Assembly: GCA_963834895.1 (NCBI GenBank)
Contig: CAWIDM010000003.1
Location: 909,569-973,568, forward strand
Length of the DNA stretch: 64,000 nt
Source of the DNA: Vulcanimicrobiota bacterium
Lineage (GTDB): Bacteria; Vulcanimicrobiota; Vulcanimicrobiia; Vulcanimicrobiales; Vulcanimicrobiaceae
Direction: 5' to 3'
Shown: one piece after another, positions 41,873 to 60,482 of the stretch
Layout: every line of letters begins with the position of its first letter
Position numbering within the stretch: the stretch's first letter is position 1
The notes under the pieces: model-generated
The model's database searches: none
What the model was told of the DNA's origin: nothing
The model's input: only the letters and a program-made list of their open reading frames with translations
Made by a program: the position numbers and the translations under genes

Positions 41873-43422
41873 TTGTAGTTGCGCAGCTTCGGCCAGACCG
41901 AAGCGAGCGGCGTCGTGATCCCCTCGCAAATCGAGATGGGGAATCCGTTCTCAAACGGGCGTCCCCACGGATTCGAAAATCGCGCCACGATGCGGTGAAC
42001 TCGGAAGAGGTGCGCATCCCGGTCGCATTCTCCGTGAACGTCGATCACGACGTTGCCGGTATAGCCGCGCGTCCCCCACATCCAATACTGATTGTGACCC
42101 GAGAGCACCGGCGGCAGGCCGTACTCCGCTCCGAAGAAATCGATCGCCGAAGCCTCACCGTAGTTGCTGGCAAGAATCGCCGCCTGGGCGCGCTTCGCGG
42201 GCGGCAACGAATAGTAGATTTGGGCGACGAGAGCCGCGAGCTCGCGCCATCCGTGCATGTCAGCCCAGTCGGGCGGCAGGTTGCCGATTCTGGTGCGTTC
42301 CGATTTTGCGAGCTTCACCTCGTGCGCCAACATCGTTTGCGCGACGCGGTCGTAGGCCGACATAGTTCGCTCCGGCAAGACCGGCATGAGCAGCGGGACG
42401 AGCAGGAGGCCCGCGCCCAGAACGTAGAGGGCGAGCGCCGGGCGCCAAACCATCTTCGTTTGAGTCCAGGCTTCGATCGTCACCGCGCCCGCGGCGATGA
42501 GGATCGGGTAGACGTCGCCGGGATAATAATCCTTTCCGTGGAGCAGAATCATCTGCGCGATCAGCGCGAGGTAGGCGATGCCGAGAAAGCGCGCGTCGCT
42601 GCGGCGCAGTAACGCGAACAATCCGATGACGGAAACCGGCGCGAACAGCGGGTGCACGATCATCACCTGCGTGACGATGTAATCGAGAGCGGAGAGCTGC
42701 GCGTTCTTATACTCGCCGGCGTTTCGGAGCAACGACCACATCGGGTACCCGTGGCTCGCCTGCCACAGGAAGCTCGGAAGAGCGATTGCCCCAGCCAGGA
42801 ATACGCCGCCGAAAAACCACGGCGTCAGCAGAACGCGCCGCTGGGGCACGAGCAGCAGTCCCGCAAGCATCGACACGGCGAAGAAGACGACGCTGTACTT
42901 GCTCTCCAACGCGACGCCGAGGACCGCGCCGACAGCGAGCCACCAGCGAGGGTCGCCACCCTTCACGATGCGCAACACGTAGAGCGCCGCAAGTGGCCAG
43001 AGCCACAAGCCGACGATATCGGTCGTGATCGTCGTCCCGAAGTGCATCAAAGCCGGAGTCAGCGCGGCAACGAGCGCGGCGAAGAACTCGGCGAAGGCGC
43101 CGCCGCCCAGCTCGATCGCGAGCAGGCAGGTCATGTAGACCGAGGCGGCCGCAAAGAACGCGGGAACCGCTCGCAGTAGAAAGAGCGAGTGTCCAAAAAG
43201 TTGCGAACCGGCGGCCAGAAGCGGCACGATCGGCGGCTGGTCGACGTAGCCCCAGGCCGGGCGGAAGCCGCAGATCACAAAGTACAGCTCGTCGCGAAAG
43301 AAGCCGTAGTGCGGGTTGGCGATCAGATGCACGATCAGCGTCGCGAGCGCCGCGGCCGCCGGGATGGCGCGGACCCGAAGCGCTGTGCTTGGGCGCGAAC
43401 GCCCGCTTCGATCGCCTACCAT
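41869..43422 (-). CDS. GT-C glycosyltransferase, family 39/PMT_2-like (copy A)
   Basis: Polytopic membrane protein. It has [11 protein letters not shown] in the first loop (DE-type motif) and a C-terminal soluble domain. It is a paralog of 47241-48755. ATG 43422 is needed to include TM1, which is conserved with copy B. Confidence 0.75.
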   Translation of the reverse strand: MVGDRSGRSRPSTALRVRAIPAAAALATLIVHLIANPHYGFFRDELYFVICGFRPAWGYVDQPPIVPLLAAGSQLFGHSLFLLRAVPAFFAAASVYMTCLLAIELGGGAFAEFFAALVAALTPALMHFGTTITTDIVGLWLWPLAALYVLRIVKGGDPRWWLAVGAVLGVALESKYSVVFFAVSMLAGLLLVPQRRVLLTPWFFGGVFLAGAIALPSFLWQASHGYPMWSLLRNAGEYKNAQLSALDYIVTQVMIVHPLFAPVSVIGLFALLRRSDARFLGIAYLALIAQMILLHGKDYYPGDVYPILIAAGAVTIEAWTQTKMVWRPALALYVLGAGLLLVPLLMPVLPERTMSAYDRVAQTMLAHEVKLAKSERTRIGNLPPDWADMHGWRELAALVAQIYYSLPPAKRAQAAILASNYGEASAIDFFGAEYGLPPVLSGHNQYWMWGTRGYTGNVVIDVHGECDRDAHLFRVHRIVARFSNPWGRPFENGFPISICEGITTPLASVWPKLRNYN

Positions 43423-43982: not shown

Positions 43983-45338
43983 ATGATCGTTCGAAAAAGC
44001 AAGACGCCGGTTGCCATTGGTCTCATCCTCGCGATTTTTGGGCTGGCTGCGTGCCACGGCTACGGGCTCCCGTTCGGCGCTCCGATCGAGAGCGCGGGCG
44101 ATCGCGGCGCGGGGCGTCACGCGGCGACGCCGATCCAGCACGTGGTCGTAATCGTTCAGGAGAATCGGACGCCGGATTATCTCTTCCAAGGCATACCGGG
44201 CGCCGACATCGCGAAATACGCTATTGACTCGCAGGGCGAGCGCGTGCCGCTGCGCCAGATTTCGCTGCGCACGCAGTGGGACCTCAAACACTCCCATGCC
44301 GCGTTCCTCAGAGATTACGACCATGGCAAGATGGACGGTTTCGATGCGGGATTACCGGAACAGTTCCACCTTCGGCCCTTCGGCTATGCACCCGAATCCG
44401 AGGTTGCGCCCTATCACGAGATGGCGAAAGAGTACGCGTTCGCCGACCATATGTTTCAGAGCAATCAAGGGCCGAGCTTTCCCGCGCACTTGTACATCGT
44501 GAGCGGCACGGGCGGCGATCCCGCCATCGCTCCGTATAAGGCCGCGAGCAATCCGCACGACCGGATCAACGGAAGGCCCGCGCCCGGCGGTTGCGACGCG
44601 CGCCGGTCGGTCTACGTCGAGACGATCGATCCGCGCGATGGGGATCCCGGCCCCAAACCCTTCCCATGCTTCAATCGCGCGGTGCTTTCCGATCTTCTGC
44701 ACGCCGAGCACGTGACGTGGCACTACTACCAGCCGCATCGCGGGGCGGGCCGCTGGGAGGCGATGGACGCGTATCGCCACGTTCGCTACAGCCGGCAGTA
44801 CCAGAACGTGATCTGGCCGTCGCAGACGATTCTCACCGACATCAAGCAGGGCCGTCTGGCGAACGTATCGTGGGTGATCCCCGCCGGCGCTTGGTCGGAC
44901 CACGCGGGGCGTCTCGGCTCCACGAAAGGGCCTTCGTGGGTCGCGGCGATCGTCAATGCCGTGGGCGAGAGCAAGTATTGGAGGAGCACGGCGATCTTCA
45001 TCACGTGGGACGATTGGGGCGGCTGGTACGACCACGTCCCGCCGACCATTTACAATTCGTACGAGCTTGGTTTTCGCGTCCCGCTCGTCGTCGTTTCGCC
45101 CTACGCCAAGCGAGGCTACGTCTCGAAAGTCCATCACGAGTTCGGGAGCATCCTGGCCTTTACCGAAGAGACGTTCGGCATTCCGAAAGGCGCACTTGGC
45201 TCGACGGATCGCCGCGCCGACGACCTCATGGACCTCTTCGATTTTAAGCAGAATCCGCGGGAGTTTCACCGCATCGACGCTCCGCCGTTTCATCCGGGAA
45301 ACGACGCCGAGCAGACCGTCGAGGATGAGGACCCCTAG
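43983..45338 (+). CDS. Phosphoesterase-family lipoprotein (phospholipase C / AcpA acid phosphatase type)
   Basis: Lipobox LAAC after a signal peptide. IQHVVVIVQENRTPDYLF is typical of the phosphoesterase family. The C-terminal region has ITWDDWGGWYDHVPP. Confidence 0.75.
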   Translation: MIVRKSKTPVAIGLILAIFGLAACHGYGLPFGAPIESAGDRGAGRHAATPIQHVVVIVQENRTPDYLFQGIPGADIAKYAIDSQGERVPLRQISLRTQWDLKHSHAAFLRDYDHGKMDGFDAGLPEQFHLRPFGYAPESEVAPYHEMAKEYAFADHMFQSNQGPSFPAHLYIVSGTGGDPAIAPYKAASNPHDRINGRPAPGGCDARRSVYVETIDPRDGDPGPKPFPCFNRAVLSDLLHAEHVTWHYYQPHRGAGRWEAMDAYRHVRYSRQYQNVIWPSQTILTDIKQGRLANVSWVIPAGAWSDHAGRLGSTKGPSWVAAIVNAVGESKYWRSTAIFITWDDWGGWYDHVPPTIYNSYELGFRVPLVVVSPYAKRGYVSKVHHEFGSILAFTEETFGIPKGALGSTDRRADDLMDLFDFKQNPREFHRIDAPPFHPGNDAEQTVEDEDP

Positions 45339-45607
45339 TGTGCTGTCCCAGAAGTTCGGTGCATAAAGTCGCGAGCGCCGGAGCGCACTGGCGAGGCGCG
45401 AGGAGGGAGCGTAGCCGTAGCTCTGTGACCGACGAGCAACAAAGCCAGTGCGCATCCGCCGCCGCGACCCTTCGGGCTGGCCGTTTGACGGTCGCGGGCT
45501 GCGTCACTCTTCGCTCGCAAAGCGCTGCTTTTGTCGCTCATCGTTCCTTGCCCGCACTCCACCAAACGGCCAGCTTTATACATCGAACTCCTGGGACAGC
45601 ACACTAG
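45335..45607. mobile_element. MITE-like element E1 (273 bp, 34-bp TIRs, non-autonomous)
   Basis: CTAGTGTGCTGTCCCAGAAGTTCGGTGCATAAAG at 45335-45368 pairs with its inverted partner at 45574-45607, with 3 mismatches in 34. A near-identical copy lies at 56216-56488 in inverted orientation. Confidence 0.8.
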
Positions 45608-47241: not shown

Positions 47242-48755
47242 TAGATATAGACGCGAAGCTGGGGCCAGAGGGCGGCGAGCGGCTTGGTGATGCCGGTGCA
47301 GATCGAGATCGGTATGTCCTGCTCGTACGAGATCACCCAGGGCGGATTAAATCGGGTGACCAACCGCGCGGCGCGAAAAAGTCCGGGAAAATCGTGGCGC
47401 CCGCAGTCGCCGTCGACGTCGATGACGACGTTGCCGGTATATCCGTGAATTCCCCAAAGCCAGTAATTGTTATGTCCGGAGAGCGCCGGCGGCAGGCCGT
47501 ACTTCGCCCCAAAGAAGTCGATCGCGGCCGCCTCGCCGTAGTTGCTCGCAACGATTGCCGCTTGATCTCGCTGCGCCGCCGGAAGTGCATAGTAGATGCC
47601 CGATACCGTTGCGGCGAGCTCCGGCCAGCCATGCATATCGGCCCAGTCCTCGGGCAGGGCTGCGGTGCGGTGCCGTTCGGTCGCGAGCGCGGATCGCGGG
47701 ATGTGGAGCGCGCGCGCGGCGAAGGAAGTGTAACGCAGCATTGCCGTTTCGGAGAGCACCGGCAGCGCGAATGGTGCGAAGAAAGCGCCCGCCGCAATCG
47801 TCGCCGCCACGACGGCGCCGCGCACCACGTACGCCCGCTGCGTCCAGCCCTCAATTGCGGCGCCGCCGGCCGCGATCAGGATCGGATAGACGTCGGCGGG
47901 ATAGTAGTACTTCGCGTGCAGCGCGACCATTATCGCAATGAGGATGAGATAGGCATACCCGAGGAAGCGCGTCACCCGTCCGCGGAGCAGCCAAATCAGT
48001 CCGATTATCCAGATGGGCCACGTAAAAAGATTTGTAACGAGCAGTTGCTGGAAAAGAAAGAGTCCGGGGGCGGCGACGACGTTCTTTCGGTTGGCGCCGT
48101 TGCGCAGCAGCTCCCACATCGGAAAACCATGGAATGCTTGCCAGAGGAAGTCGGGCAGCGCGATGAGCGCGGCGACGGCGGCGCCGGCTAAGAACCAACG
48201 CGATGCGAGCACGCGCCGCTGCGGAGTGAGCGCCAAACCCGCGAGCAGCGCCACGGCAAAGAAGAGCACGCTGTACTTGCTCTCAAGCGCGATCCCGACC
48301 GCTGTGCCGGCGGCGATCCACCAGCGCGGATCGGCTCCCTTGACGATGCGCAGCACGCAGAGCGCCGTAAGCGGCCAGAGCCAGAGGCCGACCATATCCG
48401 GTCCGACCTTGGCGCCGAAGCTCTCGAGAACCGGCGCCCCGAGGTACGCGAGGGTTGCAAGCGAGGCGGCAAAGACTCCGCCTCCGAGCTCGTATGCAAG
48501 CAAGCACGTCACGTACGCGCCGCCTGCCGCAAAGAGCGCCGCAACCGCGCGCAGCGCGAAGAGCGAATGGCCGAAAAGCTGGGAGCCGGCGGCGAGAAGC
48601 GGCACGACCGGCGGTTGATCGACGTAGCCCCACGCCGGATGGAAGCCGCAAATGATGAAGTAGAGCTCGTCGCGGAAGAAGCCGTAGTGCGGATTGGCCG
48701 CGAGGTGAATGCCGAGCGTGACGAGCGCGGCGATCGCCGCGACCCTCGTTCGCAC
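47241..48755 (-). CDS. GT-C glycosyltransferase, family 39/PMT_2-like (copy B)
   Basis: 504 aa. It has the same architecture and motifs as copy A ([18 protein letters not shown], the C-terminal [12 protein letters not shown]...GHNNYW...ISIC). GTG start at 48755. Confidence 0.8.
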
Positions 48756-53769: not shown

Positions 53770-53825
53770 GACGCCTCAAACTTGGCGACCCGGCATGCGA
53801 GGTCCCGCGTTTGGGCCGCCATGAA

Positions 53826-55229
53826 TTACTGATGCGGCATGGCGCCGCCGGTCGAGTGAAGGAGCCGTCCAAGGGTCATTTCGATCTCGGCTGTATTCTG
53901 GACTTGCGTGAAGTAGGGTACGAGCGTGGGGGTGCGCGAGCGCTGCTCGAATGGCAGCATCGGGCCGCCCCAGGCGAATTGCGTCGCCGCTTGGCCCGCG
54001 AGACTGCGAAAGAAGAGTTCGGCCCCGAGCGCGTTCGCCCAGCCGAACTCGGGACGGGTGTACCGCCAGTAGCCGTCGGGATAAAAGCTCTCGTGGATGA
54101 GCCCGCTCTCCCCATCGGTCTCGGCAAGCGTCGTGATTGCGGTTGCGACTTCGATCGACGACGTCGCGGTCAGGGCGCGCCCGATGATGCCGAGCGGCCA
54201 AACGTAACCATACGGAGTATGCGGGCTGCCCAGCCCCTGCGCGTATCGCCCCGAGAAGTAGAACGGGTTGTCCATGCTGAGCGCAAAGGCGCGAGTTGCC
54301 AGATAGGTCGGATCGAAGGACGAGCACCAATCGATATACGGCAGCGTCGTGAGGTTCGGAATGTTTGCGTCGTCCATCAGGTCGTATTTGCCGAAGCCGT
54401 CGGTTTCGTAGGCGTACATCCAGACGCGGCGGCTCGCGTCGTAAAACCTTCCGTACTGCAGAATTCCCGCTTCGACGCGCTCCTCGAGCGCCTGCGCTCG
54501 ATCGGCGAGCGCGCGATCGCGGTAACCGTCGATGGCGAGCTGCACGATGTCGCGCAGCGCTACGCACGCGGCGGCGTTCTGCGGAATATTGAAGCGGTAG
54601 GCTGCCGCATCGTCGGACGGGCGGAACGCACCCCAGATCATACCGGTCGCCTCGTTGTATTCGTCGTCGGTATAGACCGTGACGGGGTACGCGTACCGAC
54701 TGCACGTGCGATGATGCTCCTCGCATGCATACGTGCGGACGACCGTCGCCAGCGCGCGGTGCAGGTCCGTCGTAAAGACCGTCGCGTCGTGGGTCGATCG
54801 CCAGTAGACCGATGCCAGGATCACCGGCCATGCGAGCGAGTCGACCTCCCACTTGCGCTCCCAAATCGTGTAATCCGATTGCAGCGCGTTCGCATACGGA
54901 TCGGTGAGAATATTTCTGGCGTTGCGTTCGATCACGCCGGCGAAGCGAGCCCGCAAGACCGGATAGGATCGTTGGAATCGAATGTACGGTATCGTCTGCG
55001 CCGAGGAATCGCGCAGCCACATCGCCGGAATGTCGCCCGATTGCACGTACGTGGTGACGTCGTCTTCGAGAAAGAAATCGTGGAAGAGGGTATGGAAGAG
55101 CGTCGCGGTTTGGATGTCGCGAACGCGCTTGCCGGTGAGCGGAACGACCAGCGTTTCGGCCGCCGCGGGCGCCGCACTTTGGTACGCGATCATGAGGACG
55201 AGCGCGAAGCTCGCGCAACGCGCAAGCAC
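53826..55229 (-). CDS. Secreted GH125-family exo-alpha-1,6-mannosidase
   Basis: Signal peptide (LARCASFALVLMIAYQSAAPAAA). GDIPAMWLRDSSAQ and GLIHESF are typical of GH125. GTG start lies 7 nt after GGAG. Confidence 0.8.
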   Translation of the reverse strand: MLARCASFALVLMIAYQSAAPAAAETLVVPLTGKRVRDIQTATLFHTLFHDFFLEDDVTTYVQSGDIPAMWLRDSSAQTIPYIRFQRSYPVLRARFAGVIERNARNILTDPYANALQSDYTIWERKWEVDSLAWPVILASVYWRSTHDATVFTTDLHRALATVVRTYACEEHHRTCSRYAYPVTVYTDDEYNEATGMIWGAFRPSDDAAAYRFNIPQNAAACVALRDIVQLAIDGYRDRALADRAQALEERVEAGILQYGRFYDASRRVWMYAYETDGFGKYDLMDDANIPNLTTLPYIDWCSSFDPTYLATRAFALSMDNPFYFSGRYAQGLGSPHTPYGYVWPLGIIGRALTATSSIEVATAITTLAETDGESGLIHESFYPDGYWRYTRPEFGWANALGAELFFRSLAGQAATQFAWGGPMLPFEQRSRTPTLVPYFTQVQNTAEIEMTLGRLLHSTGGAMPHQ

Positions 55230-55298
55230 TATGAGGCTCCTTCTTTCGCTCTAGACGTACGGGAGGTCCGCTCTCGCCGCGAGCCGCAAAGAACGCGG

Positions 55299-56219
55299 AT
55301 GGACCTTCTGCGCGAGTTCGAGCTGCGCAATCCCCGCGCGCTTGCGCGGGCGATCTCGCTTGCCGAGGCGGGCCGAGGCGGCGACCTCGTTCGCGCGCTC
55401 TATCCGAAGACCGGACGTGCGACGACGGTCGGCCTTACCGGACCGCCCGGCGTCGGCAAATCGACGCTGGCTTCCGGCCTGGTGCGCAGCGCGCGCTCGC
55501 GCGGCCAGCGCGTGGGCGTCGTATCGGTCGACCCCTCCTCGCCGTTCTCGCACGGCGCACTGCTCGGCGACCGCATCCGTCTTGCGGAGCATTTCACCGA
55601 CGAAGCCGTCTTCATTCGATCGATGGCCAGCCACGGGCATCTCGGCGGCCTCGCCGGCGCGACCGCCGATGCCGTGCTGTTGATGGATGCCTTCGGCTTC
55701 GATCTCGTGCTGATCGAAACCGTCGGCGTCGGACAGAGCGAGGTGGCGATCGCCGAGCTCGCGGAGACGACGATCGTGGCGTTGCAGCCCGGGAGCGGCG
55801 ATTCGATCCAAGTGCTCAAAGCAGGCATCATGGAGATCGCCGACATCTTCGTCGTCAACAAGAGCGACCACCCAATGGCCGATCAGTTGCGCCGAGAGAT
55901 TCGATCGATGATGGAGATGCAGCACTGGCCTCGATGGGTACCCGAACTCATCGCGACGCAAGCATTGGAGGGAAAAGGAATCGACGAGCTGGTGAGCGCG
56001 ATCGAACGCCACACGGCGTACTTGAACGAAACGGGCGAGATCGAAGGGCGGCGCCGCGACGCATTCACCCATCAAGTCCGCCAGCTCGCGCTGGGGCGCC
56101 TGGAGCAACGGCTCGATCGCGCGTTGAAAGCGCAACCGCGCGACGACCTCGACCCATACGAAGCGGCCGATCGCGTTCTCTCCGAGCTCGGTCTCTCGTC
56201 TCCGCGGACGGCACACTAG
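55299..56219 (+). CDS. meaB: Methylmalonyl-CoA mutase accessory GTPase (MeaB/ArgK)
   Basis: GPPGVGKST and VVNKSDH. Only the last 306 codons of the 802-aa track ORF are used; the remainder is antisense to the GH125 gene. Confidence 0.9.
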   Translation: MDLLREFELRNPRALARAISLAEAGRGGDLVRALYPKTGRATTVGLTGPPGVGKSTLASGLVRSARSRGQRVGVVSVDPSSPFSHGALLGDRIRLAEHFTDEAVFIRSMASHGHLGGLAGATADAVLLMDAFGFDLVLIETVGVGQSEVAIAELAETTIVALQPGSGDSIQVLKAGIMEIADIFVVNKSDHPMADQLRREIRSMMEMQHWPRWVPELIATQALEGKGIDELVSAIERHTAYLNETGEIEGRRRDAFTHQVRQLALGRLEQRLDRALKAQPRDDLDPYEAADRVLSELGLSSPRTAH

Positions 56220-56488
56220 TGTGCTGTCCCAGGAGTTCAGTGTATAAAGCTGGCCGTTTGGCGGAATGCGGGCAAGGAACGATGAGCGACAAAAGCAGCG
56301 CTTTGCGAGCGAAGAGTGACGCAGCCCGCGACCGTCAAGCGGCCAGCCCAAAGGGTCGCGGCGGCGGATGCGTACTGGCTTTGTTGCTCGTCGGTCACAG
56401 AGCTACGGCTATGCTCCCTCCTCGCGCCGCGCCAGTGCGCTCCGGCGCTCGCGACTTTATGCACCGAACTCCTGGGACGGCACACTAG
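56216..56488. mobile_element. MITE-like element E2 (273 bp, inverted relative to E1)
   Basis: CTAGTGTGCTGTCCCAGGAGTTCAGTGTATAAAG ... CTTTATGCACCGAACTCCTGGGACGGCACACTAG. It is collinear with the reverse complement of E1 throughout. Confidence 0.8.
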
Positions 56489-56537
56489 GCGCGTCTTTGG
56501 GGAGAATCTCGGGCCCGCGTCGAAAAGCTCGCCCGCT

Positions 56538-58196
56538 ATGGCCCTTCGACAGGCTCAGAACAGGCTGAAAATCATCGAGCCCCCCGCCGGCCGCTGGGCT
56601 CGCAAGGGTCCCGGCTCCGGCGCGGTGGACCGCACGATCTCCGACGTTCCTCTGCGAACGGTCTACGGACCCGACGACGTTGCGGAGCTCGATCTCCCGT
56701 GGCCCGGTGAATATCCCTACATGCGCGGGATTCATCCCAACGGCTATCGCGACCGCCTCTGGACGATGCGCCAGTTCGCCGGCTTCGGCACCGCGGCACA
56801 GACGAACGAGCGCTACCATTTTCTGCTCGAGCACGGGCAGCACGGCCTCTCCGTCGCCTTCGATATGCCGACGCTGATGGGATACGACTCCGACGCGCCC
56901 CAAGCGCGCGGTGAAGTCGGCAAGTGCGGTGTTGCGATCGACTCGCTCGCCGACATGGAGCTGCTCTTCGCCGGCATCGACATGGGCGAGATCACGACGT
57001 CGATGACGATCAACGGCCCCGCCTGCATCGCGCTCGCTCAGTACATCGCGACGGCGGAGAAAAAAGGCATTCCGCGCGCCAAGCTTGGCGGAACGATTCA
57101 GGCCGACATCCTCAAGGAGTACATCGCGCAGAAGGAGTGGATATTCCCGCCGCGTCCGCACATGCGCATCATCGTCGACATGATCCGGTTCTGCACACGC
57201 GAGATGCCGAAGTGGAATACGATCTCGATCTCCGGCTACCACATTCGCGAGGCTGGCTCGACCGCAGCCCAAGAACTCGCCTTCACGCTCGCCGACGGCT
57301 TCGCGTACGTCGAGGCCTGCATGGCGGCCGGGATGGACGTCGACGAGTTTGCCCCGCGCCTCTCGTTCTTCTTCAATTCACATATCGACTTCTTCGAGGA
57401 GATCGCTAAGTTTCGCGCGGCACGTCGAATCTACGCGCGCCATATGCGCGAGAAGTACGGCGCGCGCAATCCGCGCTCGTGGCAGCTCCGCTTCCATACG
57501 CAAACGGCGGGGTGCAGCGCGACGGCACAGCAACCCGAAAACAATATCGTGCGCGTTGCTTACGAGGCAATGGCCGCGGTGCTCGGCGGAACGCAGTCGC
57601 TGCACACCAACTCCATGGACGAAGTCCTGGCCCTGCCGACGGAGAAATCCGTCGAGATCGCATTGCGTACCCAACAGGTCCTGGCGTACGAGACGAACGT
57701 CACGAACGTCGTCGATCCGCTCGGCGGCTCCTATTTCGTCGAGGCGCTCACCGCTGAGATGGAACGCCAAGCCGAGGCCTACTTCGCGCAGATCGCCGAG
57801 TACGGCGGCGTCATCGAAGCGATCGAGTCGGGCTTCTTTCAACGCGAGATCGCGGAGGCGAGCTATCGCTACCAGCGCTCGATCGAGACGCGCGATCGCA
57901 TCATCGTGGGCGTCAACGCCTTCGCGCACGACGAGGACGAAGAGGCGATCGACCTGCTGAAGATCACCGAGGCGATGGCGCGCGAGCAGGCCGGCGCGGT
58001 GCAGAAGCTCCGCACGAACCGCGACGCGGATGCGGTCGCACGGACGCTCGAGCGGCTGCAAGCAGCTTGTCGCGATCCGAAGGATAACCTTATGCCGCAT
58101 CTGATCGATTGCGTGAATGCGTACTGCACCGAGGGCGAGATCGTCGAGGCGATGGCGGCGGTCTACGGACGGTATACGGAACGAGCGGTCCTCTGA
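56538..58196 (+). CDS. B12-dependent acyl-CoA mutase, large (catalytic) subunit, methylmalonyl-CoA mutase family
   Basis: [26 protein letters not shown] and [17 protein letters not shown]. The ATG 56538 start is tentative. Substrate specificity was not assigned. Confidence 0.85.
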
Positions 58197-58343
58197 TGCG
58201 TCATCGACGCGGCATTCGCTGCCGCAGCGACATCGAGCTCTACCGCATGCGCCGTATCCTCAAACGCGTCGTCCGCAAGCTGGAAGAAGCGTTGCATTTA
58301 AGCCGTCGCCGGGATGGGCAGCGACTTCCTCAGGAGTTCCGTG

Positions 58344-58760
58344 ATGAACGATCGGCCGCTGCGCATCGTCATCGCTAAGGCCGGCCTCGACGGACACGAC
58401 CGCGGGGCAAAGGTCATCGCGCGCGCTCTGCGCGATGCCGGCATGGAAGTGATCTATACCGGGCTCTTCCAAACGCCCGAGCAGATCGTGCAGACCGCGA
58501 TCCAGGAGGACGCAGACGGCATCGGCCTCTCGATTCTCTCGGGAGCGCACATGACGCTCTTTCCGCTCGTCGTGGAGCAGCTGAAAAGTCAGGACGCTGG
58601 CGACATCGTCTTTTTCGGCGGCGGCACGATTCCGGCCGAAGACGCAAAGCGCCTCAAAGAGCTCGGCGTGCGCGAGATATTCACGCCGGGCGCACCGCTG
58701 CAGGAGATCATCGACTTCGTCGAGCGCGAATGCGGTAAACGGCGCGCGCTGGTAGGTTAG
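58344..58760 (+). CDS. Acyl-CoA mutase small subunit (B12-binding domain)
   Basis: DxHxxG motif GLDGHDRGAKV, and GIGLSILSGAH. AGGAG lies 8 nt upstream of ATG 58344. Confidence 0.9.
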   Translation: MNDRPLRIVIAKAGLDGHDRGAKVIARALRDAGMEVIYTGLFQTPEQIVQTAIQEDADGIGLSILSGAHMTLFPLVVEQLKSQDAGDIVFFGGGTIPAEDAKRLKELGVREIFTPGAPLQEIIDFVERECGKRRALVG

Positions 58761-59031
58761 GAGCCTGCCGGACTATGCTCGTGTGCGATGCTGAGGTCGA
58801 TTTCGGATGAGCTTTAGGAGCGAGGGAGGGAGCATAGCAGCGCTCTGCAACCGACCGAGCGACGACAAGATCGCCGAAATCGACCTCAGCCCTTGGGGTT
58901 GGTCGCGGCGCCAATCGCCGACTGCGTCTCTCCTCGCTCAAATGGCGCTGTCATTCCACGCTCGTCGATCCTTGTCGGCGAATGGCGGCGCGAACAACAG
59001 CGCGCACGACCATAGTCCGGCAGGCTCCTAA
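58757..59031. mobile_element. MITE-like element E3 (275 bp, different TIR family, core homologous to E1/E2)
   Basis: TTAGGAGCCTGCCGGACTATGCTCGTGTGCGATG at 58757-58790 pairs with an inverted partner ending at 59031. The first 21 nt match perfectly and 31 of 34 match overall. There is an internal perfect 17-bp inverted repeat, 58790-58806 with 58874-58890. Confidence 0.75.
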
Positions 59032-60482
59032 TGTCCCGGGTTCGAACGCGCGTCGCGCCGTCGCCCACCGGCGATCCGCACGTAGGGACGGCGTACGTCG
59101 CGCTGGTCAACTACTGCTTCGCGCGCAAGCACGGCGGTGAGTTCGTCCTGCGCATCGAGGACACCGATCAAGCGCGCAGCACCGCCGAGAGCGAGCGCGC
59201 AATCCTCCAGACCCTGCACTGGTGCGGCCTCGATTGGGACGAAGGCCCCGACGTCGGCGGCCCGCACGGCCCTTACCGCCAGAGCGAACGCACCGAGATC
59301 TATCACGAGTACGCGCAGAAGCTGCTGGCCGGCGGCCACGCCTTCAAGTGTTTCTGCGCGCCGCAGCGCCTCGAGGAGATGCGGGTCGCACAGCGCGCCG
59401 CGGGTCAGCCCTCGCGCTACGACGGGCTCTGCCGCGCCTGTTCGCCCGAAGAGGTCGCGCGCCGCGAGGCTGCCGGCGAGCCGTACGTCGTGCGGATGGT
59501 CGTTCCAGACGAAGGAGTTTGCGTCGTCGAAGATCTTCGCCGCGGACCAATCGAGTTCGACTACAAGAGCGTCGACATGCAGGTGCTCGTGAAATCGGAC
59601 GGCATGCCGACCTATCACCTCGCCAACGTCGTCGACGATCACCTCATGGCGATCACGCACGTTTTCCGCGGCGAAGAGTGGGTCTCGAGCGCTCCCAAGC
59701 ACCTCTTGCTCTACTCGTACTTCGGCTGGCAGCCGCCGAAGCTGATGCACCTTCCGCTGCTGCGCAATCCCGACAAGAGCAAGCTGAGCAAACGCAAGAA
59801 CCCCACCGGCATCCTCTTCTACCGCGCGATGGGCTATCTGCCGGAGGCGCTGATCAACTTCTTGGCGTTGCTGGCCAACGCACCGCGCGAGGGCGAGGAC
59901 GAGCTGATGGATCTCGCTGCGATCGTGCGGCGGTTCGAGGTCGAGCACGTGCCGGTCGGCGGCCCCGTCTTCGACGTCGCGAAGCTCGACTGGTTGAACG
60001 CGCGCTACATTCGCGAGCGGCTCGACGCGGCGTCGTTCGTCGAACGCGTCAAGGAGTGGGCGATCTCGCCGCAGCGCGTGACCCGCATTGCCGAGCTCGC
60101 GGCGCCGCGAATCGAGCGCTTGAGCGACTTGGGACCGCTGCTCGCCTTTCTCTTCTCGGGACGCATCGCGCCGCGCGCGCAAGACTTTCAGAGCAAGAAG
60201 CTCGACGAAGACGAGACGAAGCGAGCTCTGACCCTCGCGCTCGCCGAGTTCGACGCGCTGCCCGCCTGGAATGCATTTTCGATCGAGACGGCCATCAAGG
60301 CAGTCGCGGAATCCCTCGACAAGAAGGTGCGCGACGTGGCGCGTCCGTTCTACGTCGCAATCACCGGCAGCCCCACTTCGATTCCGCTCTACGACTCGAT
60401 GGAGCTGCTCGGACGCGACATCGTGCGGGAGCGCCTGCGCAATGCCCTCGATTGCCTGGCGCGCGAATCGGTGCCGGCATGA
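59031..60482 (+). CDS. gltX: Glutamate--tRNA ligase
   Basis: HIGH-type motif PTGDPHVGTA and KMSKS-type motif KLSKRK. 483 aa. Confidence 0.95.
   Translation: MSRVRTRVAPSPTGDPHVGTAYVALVNYCFARKHGGEFVLRIEDTDQARSTAESERAILQTLHWCGLDWDEGPDVGGPHGPYRQSERTEIYHEYAQKLLAGGHAFKCFCAPQRLEEMRVAQRAAGQPSRYDGLCRACSPEEVARREAAGEPYVVRMVVPDEGVCVVEDLRRGPIEFDYKSVDMQVLVKSDGMPTYHLANVVDDHLMAITHVFRGEEWVSSAPKHLLLYSYFGWQPPKLMHLPLLRNPDKSKLSKRKNPTGILFYRAMGYLPEALINFLALLANAPREGEDELMDLAAIVRRFEVEHVPVGGPVFDVAKLDWLNARYIRERLDAASFVERVKEWAISPQRVTRIAELAAPRIERLSDLGPLLAFLFSGRIAPRAQDFQSKKLDEDETKRALTLALAEFDALPAWNAFSIETAIKAVAESLDKKVRDVARPFYVAITGSPTSIPLYDSMELLGRDIVRERLRNALDCLARESVPA

Follow-up and report, generated by a model that had tools for sequence, protein, structure and literature searches.

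Why should the interior of a small non-coding element resemble that of another element whose ends are different? The question is raised by E3, one of three elements with inverted ends (E1, E2 and E3) in a stretch of 64,000 nucleotides from a Vulcanimicrobiota bacterium (assembly GCA_963834895.1, contig CAWIDM010000003.1, positions 909,569 to 973,568). This whole stretch is called the window, and positions are those of the window unless another locus is named. An earlier note, made from the letters of the window, had described in E3 two internal blocks homologous to blocks of E1, the first of them held in the loop of a stem whose sequence differs between the families, and had suggested an undescribed structured nucleic acid module. 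Miniature inverted-repeat transposable elements (MITEs) are usually seen as the junk ends of dead transposons, but here the interior and not the ends is the most conserved part. We find that both blocks belong to one hairpin module, present as an inverted pair, and that this hairpin is probably a selected, so far undescribed structured module of RNA or single-stranded DNA.

Homology between E3 and E1

The inverted ends of E3 and the stems of both elements were confirmed at the positions first proposed. In an inverted-repeat search, the ends of E3 form arms of 37 nt with 89% complementarity (58757-58793 and 58995-59031). The exact stem of E3 consists of 58790-58806 (GCTGAGGTCGATTTCGG) with 58874-58890, and that of E1 of 45383-45392 (GCGCACTGGC) with 45444-45453. 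The homology of the two cores survives alignment: E1 and E3 (plus strand) reach a local alignment score of 62 and are colinear for some 160 nt at equal offsets, the elements being 274 and 275 bp long, while the background is 20.4 ± 2.8 (maximum 30) for 478 random window segments and 18.5 ± 2.3 for shuffled E3. Within the window, the patterns of block 1 and block 2 are found only in E1, E2 and E3, with 0 expected by chance. E1 and E2, whose repeat-bounded spans are 45334-45607 and 56216-56489 (inverted), are 96% identical.

The ends of E1 and E3 had been called unrelated. They are only about 41% identical in an ungapped comparison, which agrees with that description, but their tip, TA-G...(C/G)CTG, is common to nearly all families of these elements.

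Architecture of the hairpin

Block 1 had been described as an unpaired loop, and this part of the earlier picture has to be given up. In the minimum-energy structures of RNAfold, as well as in the columns of the 111-hairpin alignment described below, the supposed loop is a continued helix with G·A mismatches, in which 2x2 internal loops (GA opposite GA) alternate with short Watson-Crick steps. The core of E3 reads 5' G GA GC GA GG GA GG GA GCA U AGC [AGC] GCU C UGC AA CC GA CC GA GC GA C, and the core of E1 reads G GC GC GA G GA GG GA GCG U AGC [CGUA] GCU C UGU GA CC GA C GA GC AA C. Each one-base indel between E1 and E3 is one side of the same base pair, where E3 has GG:CC and E1 has G:C. Indels that are not a multiple of three had been read as a sign of structure, and they do amount to a compensating G:C pair; together with apical loops of 3 or 4 nt and the absence of any Pfam match for the open reading frames (ORFs) inside E3, this supports a structured nucleic acid and not a protein.

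The module consists of three layers. The outer stem of about 25 bp evolves fast and is constrained only to pair. Inside it lies what we call the “purine zipper”, three to four tandem G·A/A·G mismatches with 1–3 covarying Watson-Crick pairs between them. On top of the zipper sits a cap, GCA-U-[3-bp stem, free 3–4 nt loop]-C-UGY, with a conserved G·U pair. When folded as RNA, hairpin A of E3 has a free energy of -56.0 kcal/mol on the plus strand (z -7.6) and -45.6 kcal/mol on the complement, and hairpin B has -50.3 kcal/mol on the minus strand vs -46.8 on the plus strand.

Block 2 is the module of block 1 in inverted orientation, which refines the earlier picture of two separate blocks. The covariance model R1, built from hairpin A sequences only, matches hairpin A of E3 at 58805-58879 (+) with 48 bits (E 8e-12), and it also finds a minus-strand match at 58910-58983 with 42 bits (E 7e-10). 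Hairpin B is detected by R1 on the opposite strand in all three window elements (matches in E1 and E2 are listed in Table 1) and in the other two-hairpin elements examined, with E from 1e-6 to 1e-13. The strand that forms the zipper is always the one running 5' to 3' inward from the nearer end of the element. The two copies being inverted, a single zipper hairpin falls to each strand, and it is the copy closer to the end at which reading of that strand starts. With RNA parameters, 98 of 106 hairpins are more stable as the purine strand than as the complement (mean -5.9 kcal/mol).

The whole element folds into a Y, with an end-to-end stem and two long hairpins (fold z -9 to -11 on either strand), and its symmetry centre is CCC-nnn-GGG with a free 3-nt loop in all families. 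Pairing of block 1 with block 2 across the element was considered and rejected: the outer arms of hairpin A lack complementarity to those of hairpin B, and the ensemble of each hairpin is dominated by that hairpin itself.

Covariation and maintenance of the stems

Alignment of the raw hairpins by MAFFT and RNAalifold misaligned the variable arms and gave only part of the structure, and it was replaced by an alignment-free test, an ungapped seed alignment and the covariance model R1, which yields 111 hairpins over 62 sources. In the alignment-free test, the cognate arms of stem A pair at -40.2 ± 6.3 kcal/mol, while arms of dissimilar copies pair at -18.1 ± 5.4 kcal/mol; the corresponding values for stem B are -37.8 (cognate) and -19.6 kcal/mol (non-cognate). 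Between copies, the outer-stem arms are only 36–45% identical. In the ungapped alignment of 35 hairpins, 89.5% of cells are paired, compared with 79.5% in shuffles (0 of 500 reach the observed value) and 22–46% when the 3' partner is slid, and 9 of 10 outer-stem pairs show double-sided changes. For the 111 hairpins, the paired fraction is 89.4% (67.6% shuffled; 26–41% slid) and the covariation score is 0.523 vs 0.156; this alignment was fitted to the model and leans to its structure, whereas the alignment-free and ungapped tests are without that bias. The claim that the stems differ in sequence and stay complementary is thus borne out in all three ways.

The 111 hairpins also show which columns are free to change. 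Spacer pairs of the zipper switch their type, for example GC 49 / UA 31 / CG 21 and GC 65 / CG 39, while the tandem GA columns are G or A in 97–111 of the 111 sequences on both arms, and the G·U pair atop the zipper is kept (GU 66, GC 9). The G·A steps are thus kept from turning into Watson-Crick pairs. This tells against a mere upkeep of palindromes, and also against a protein site on the duplex, and speaks for a folded single strand.

Upkeep of the stems across more copies is also seen at an insertion common to two species, whose flanks are 75–85% identical. There, both sides of 12 pairs have changed, with pairing retained in 11, and a hand count gives 2 differing positions out of 49 in block 2. 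In the terminal repeats, positions about 6–18 are hypervariable from one species to the next, but within each copy the changes at the left end go along with those at the right. In the orthologous insertion L020 vs L029, 8–9 of 13 end positions differ, and the changes are mirrored at the other end.

Distribution among element families

The earlier note had seen the module in two families with different ends, and it proves to be far more widespread than that. With one genome scanned per species, the exact pattern was found at 35 loci. Nearly all of them come from metagenome-assembled genomes of Eremiobacterota (Aquilonibacter, Cybelea, Tumulicola), and a few from bins labelled Methylomirabilota, Dormibacterota and Acidoferrum. 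The Acidoferrum contig (L030) contains a typical Eremiobacterota family and has a 300-nt flank identical to that of metagenome locus L055, so it may be mis-binned. The 35 loci follow a common plan (end / variable stem / block 1 / stem / CCC-nnn-GGG / variable stem / block 2 / stem / end) and include at least four families of ends and stems.

In metagenomes, a scan with a slightly relaxed pattern gave 53 loci, about a dozen of which are chance matches in coding sequence. The remaining loci include new families with unrelated ends and different stems but the same cap and zipper, on contigs of 40–74% GC: a single-hairpin family of about 157 bp (14 loci), L044/70/76, L077/85, L063/69/73, L042/65, L051, L088 and L043, and further element families adjoin these. 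In other families, the apical stem AGC:GCU is swapped for CCCC:GGGG or AUCC:GGAU, and spacer lengths vary while the spacers are still paired. The module is carried by MITEs of at least ten families whose ends are unrelated, both in Eremiobacterota and in other lineages (40–74% GC), and the carriers include many elements of bacteria from soil and sediment. No match to the motif was found in viral contigs, and neither E3 nor E1 had a match in plasmids by BLAST.

Several loci show how these elements change and accumulate. L026, L036 and L050 are internal-deletion derivatives, in which hairpin A and both ends are kept and hairpin B is lost; L026 is orthologous to the full-length L028. L022 (1-60) and L027 (3324-3436), which belong to different end families, contain the same palindrome of about 46 bp with a perfect stem, TGGGCAACCAAAAGTATGCGAT(T/C)GCGTACTTTTGGTTGCCCA. 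It is inserted at the identical point of block 1, after GCTCTGTG, and is absent from the other loci and from the window; perhaps it is a nested mini-element with the hairpin as its target. In L003 (2091-2116), two elements stand back to back with one CTAG in common (…CAGGCCACTAGTGGCCTG…), a tandem insertion into the boundary TA. L076 (1-4740) and L044 (13000-14209) represent one genome of about 60% GC with at least four hairpin-bearing elements within 5 kb, and these have ends of three families, GGGTCTGTGCAAAAATAA, GTGGTCCATTTCATAAATACG and AGAGCGTGTCCGAAAATTGCG.

Insertion of E3

E3 is a genuine insertion. Where the stop of the B12-domain gene and the start of gltX had overlapped (GGT-TA-ATG), the element entered at the TA, and the TA was duplicated. 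The junction in the window is GGT-TA-[GGAGCC...GGCTCC]-TA-ATG. The element-free site rebuilt from it is a TAATG stop/start overlap, which resembles the TGATG of the closest relative. Empty sites are present in contigs of relatives (L089-L092), where the B12-domain gene abuts gltX without an element. The junctions there are GGC-TGATG, TAG-C-ATG and TAG-ACTCCTC-ATG, in relatives whose GltX is 95%, 90% and 88% identical, respectively; the closest GltX homologues are labelled Candidatus Cybelea sp., phylum Eremiobacterota. As the TA of the TAATG overlap was hit and then duplicated, the element proper is 58760-59028 (Table 1). A 3-bp TWA duplication does not fit E3, because the triplets are TTA on the left and TAA on the right, while TA fits exactly; an element of IS5/PIF-Harbinger type was rejected for E3 on this ground.

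E3 is a non-autonomous mini-transposon of the cut-and-paste type, that is, a MITE, a class which is itself already known. It is small, at 269 bp below the bound of about 600 bp for a MITE, and non-coding, has inverted ends, a target duplication and insertion polymorphism, and belongs to a set of multiple dispersed copies: the same ends as the left repeat of E3 occur at six further loci (L004, L010, L011, L018, L026 and L028). Among the other carriers, most elements of the GTG type are flanked by TA or by one-transition variants of it, and a TWA duplication fits L004, L010 and L067 (TAA/TAA) as well as L039, L051 and L081 (TTA/TTA). A cognate transposase was not found in the window or the loci collected by then, by looking for inverted repeats of insertion sequence (IS) size, copies of the ends at IS spacing and transposase motifs.

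Table 1. Positions of the elements, their hairpins and the adjacent genes in the window
Feature	Position	Strand	Remarks
E1, sister family	45338-45604	+	ends GTGTGCTGTCCCAG...; TA at 45336-45337 and 45605-45606
E1 hairpin A	45383-45456	+	
E1 hairpin B	45487-45559	-	covariance-model (R1) match
meaB	53811-56216		Pfam
E2	56219-56485	-	
E2 hairpin B	56264-56336	+	R1 match
E2 hairpin A	56367-56440	-	
Methylmalonyl-CoA mutase	56316-58193		ORF; Pfam match from residue 106
B12-binding domain gene	58314-58757		Pfam
E3 left target TA	58758-58759		from sequence read, upstream ORF end and empty-site comparison
E3 element proper	58760-59028		269 bp, non-coding; a TA copy on each side
E3 left terminal inverted repeat	58760-58789	+	GGAGCCTGCCGGACTATGCTCGTGTGCGAT
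E3 hairpin A	58790-58890	+	variable outer stem 58790-58816 with 58864-58890
E3 hairpin A, conserved purine-zipper core	58817-58863	+	47 nt
E3 central mini-hairpin	58891-58897		CC-TTG-GG, at the symmetry centre
E3 hairpin B	58898-58998	-	outer stem 58898-58922 with 58974-58998; zipper core 58923-58973
E3 right terminal inverted repeat	58999-59028	-	
E3 right target TA	59029-59030		gltX ATG (59031) directly after
gltX	59031-60479		Pfam

Gene context and stop codons

Both E2 and E3 lie inside the gene row meaB-mcm-B12-gltX, E2 between meaB and the mutase gene and E3 between the B12-domain gene and gltX. In a relative (L093), the orthologous spacer of meaB and the mutase gene is 64 nt long and has no E2. 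Directly to the left of E2 (56190-56219), there is a 13-nt remnant of a right end, GGACGGCACAC, which forms a perfect palindrome with the left end of E2 across the TA. The meaB of the window is about 8 codons longer than that of a relative, whose meaB ends at GGTCTC-TAG, and it runs through the remnant to the boundary TAG. Around E1, three colinear direct repeats (42024-43364 vs 47402-48742; 72–78% identical, constant offset 5378) lie inside long minus-strand ORFs and look like paralogous genes.

In all three window elements, the TAG stop of the upstream gene is made of the duplicated TA and the first element base, G. These stops are 45336-45338 (a phosphoesterase ORF, E1), 56217-56219 (E2) and 58758-58760 (the B12-domain gene, E3). 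At the opposite element end stands CTA, which provides TAG to a gene of the other strand. Among 23 clean elements, the end TAG closes an ORF of at least 60 codons in 19, a count to be read with the caveat that GC-rich genomes hold spurious long ORFs. TA appears to be rare in these genomes of 62–66% GC and concentrated in stop codons, so TA-seeking elements would home to gene ends and rebuild the stop, and the present elements offer a case of this in GC-rich genomes. From their position on stop codons and inside operons, the elements are probably transcribed by read-through from the neighbouring gene.

Possible functions of the purine zipper

Our preferred reading, held tentatively, is that the zipper hairpin acts in RNA. 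A transcript that entered the element from either side would meet a zipper hairpin first. The G·U pair kept atop the zipper is in line with transcription of the elements. In such a transcript the hairpin would most likely be a specific protein-binding, processing or stabilising structure, and its action might make the insertion tolerable or even useful in either orientation. Put more broadly, and with slightly more reserve, the zipper may be an unrecognised and widespread mobile structured motif (in RNA or possibly in single-stranded DNA) that is read by a factor conserved across bacterial phyla, a selected cargo captured or kept by many mini-transposon families and made orientation-independent by its inverted pair. 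Several points weigh against an action in RNA. On the predicted strand of the variable stems, G·U pairs are in no excess over A·C (16 vs 16 in stem A; 10 vs 20 in stem B, p = 0.13). Tandem G·A is stable in DNA too, and DNA parameters likewise favour the purine strand, in 94 hairpins against 9 in which it is less stable. Neither a promoter consensus nor a terminator-like U-tract was found inside the elements, and single-hairpin elements show no clear orientation preference relative to the abutting gene, in a comparison of few cases with noisy ORF calls. A sheared geometry of the G·A pairs is suggested by the sequence pattern only. Moreover, that the hairpin is conserved in families whose ends differ may just as well reflect a need for it in propagation of the element at the DNA level. 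In the form that this idea would take, which we regard as less likely but well worth considering, the zipper acts in single-stranded DNA, exposed or extruded during replication or transposition, and aids the spread of the element itself, either by recruiting a conserved host factor or by joining the two ends in a folded Y-shaped intermediate; the conservation would then reflect selection among elements and not a benefit to the host. Selection on element spread predicts what is seen, namely at least ten families with unrelated ends over the whole range of 40–74% GC, and several features fit as well: G·T and A·C are equal on both strands of the variable stems, the DNA parameters favour the purine strand, the inverted hairpins mirror the arrangement of the terminal repeats, and the whole element folds on both strands as a Y with paired ends. 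However, cut-and-paste transposases that duplicate TA or TWA work on double-stranded ends, and no requirement for internal hairpins is known for them. The same hairpin is carried by families which presumably use different transposases, one-hairpin deletion derivatives exist (the three loci named above), and the conserved G·U/T wobble would be costlier in DNA.

A further explanation is that the module has no function. The palindromes could have spread recently, with arms kept complementary by templated repair or by master copies and with blocks too young to have diverged. The outer stems without strand asymmetry, the near identity of E1 and E2, which are recent copies, and the terminal repeats that co-vary as the stems do are all in its favour, but we consider a module without function improbable: correction of one arm by the other would erase the G·A mismatches, yet these are the most conserved columns, and divergence is almost complete in the outer stems and the ends but not in the core, which indicates differential constraint. 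At the two-species insertion, too, block 2 is nearly unchanged between flanks that differ far more, and the module is found in genomes from 40% to 74% GC. Still less probable, and in our view quite unlikely, is that the blocks are double-stranded DNA sites that need no folding, either a subterminal site of the transposase or a site of a host protein such as IHF. The blocks are indeed subterminal, inverted and at fixed distances from the ends, and some Tc1-type elements have inner binding sites that resemble this layout; yet the halves of a block are paired to one another, their changes and one indel are compensatory, the flanking stems covary, and the blocks are common to families whose ends differ. 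Eight positions are always purine opposite purine, an asymmetry which a dimeric site would not conserve. That the core encodes a small protein or is a gene remnant can practically be dismissed. Mechanical ORFs of 74–77 aa do overlap E3, but besides the lack of a Pfam match, the one-base indels between families and the 3- or 4-nt apical loops, the nested insertion of L022 and L027 sits within the block, the elements occur in both orientations, and the conservation tracks pairing and not codons.

If the hairpin is functional, it would be either a new class of structured RNA, which transposition has carried into operons and the ends of genes, or a new cis-acting DNA structure of cut-and-paste elements. 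Its carriers include phyla known largely from metagenome-assembled genomes, such as Eremiobacterota. The core of about 47 nt is a compact target for structure probing and for a search of its partner, and the covariance model can be used to map the motif across genomes.

Comparison with known systems

The suggestion that the module is undescribed has held so far. In Rfam 15, the window had 0 matches at the gathering threshold; at E <= 10, E3 had one noise match (10.8 bits, threshold 50) and E1 none, and in ten further loci the only match was a tRNA, outside the element. A full-text search of the available papers found no description of the module and no paper joining Eremiobacterota and MITE, and the motif string returned only an unrelated plant paper.

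Among known MITEs, RUP is linked to IS630-Spn1, and RUP, Correia and Nezha elements duplicate TA and are co-transcribed with their neighbours. The plant Stowaway elements (TA) belong to Tc1/mariner and the Tourist elements (TWA) to PIF/Harbinger, with the IS630 and IS5 families as bacterial counterparts. Both types of duplication seem to be present among the carriers of the module, an assignment to superfamilies which rests on the duplications only. With TA in E1–E3 and TWA in other carriers, more than one transposase superfamily may mobilise them. RUP (Streptococcus pneumoniae), Correia (Neisseria) and Nezha (cyanobacteria) are likewise small and non-coding, with inverted ends and TA duplication (see also PMC2229807), and like E3 they are present in many copies, in intergenic positions or inside operons, and the whole element can fold back. 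Unlike them, E3 comes from a different phylum, no sequence relation was seen, and a cargo of the E3 type, a conserved internal hairpin in an inverted pair across unrelated ends, has not been described for any of the three. Correia elements are characterised by ends of 26 bp and an IHF site, and the likeness of E3 to them is one of architecture only.

Palindromes of the REP and ERIC type are co-transcribed and can stabilise the upstream mRNA. REP and REPIN sequences have a 5' GTAG, are without terminal inverted repeats or target duplication, and are moved by a RAYT (HUH) enzyme. REP/BIME, REPIN (PMC3116915) and ERIC are also interspersed intergenic palindromes, but without a purine-zipper core. 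Identity with REP/REPIN is ruled out by the inverted ends and the TA duplication, and no GTAG-headed repeat was seen. An IS200/IS605-type identity was rejected as well, as the hairpins lie on opposite strands with mirror symmetry, and inverted ends and a duplication are present.

At the level of the helix, motifs with tandem G·A pairs include kink-turns, loop E, the hammerhead core, (GGA)n “zipper” DNA and the GA/GAA bubble of parvoviral hairpin ends. A kink-turn was ruled out, because the tandem G·A pairs here are symmetric 2x2 internal loops and there is no 3-nt bulge. The zipper and these motifs are alike in their conserved purine-purine oppositions flanked by covarying Watson-Crick pairs, and the parvoviral ends are likewise Y-shaped foldbacks, but with 0 matches in viral contigs the module shows no link to viruses. 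What sets the zipper apart from the known G·A motifs is that three to four tandem G·A steps recur every 3–5 nt along one helix.

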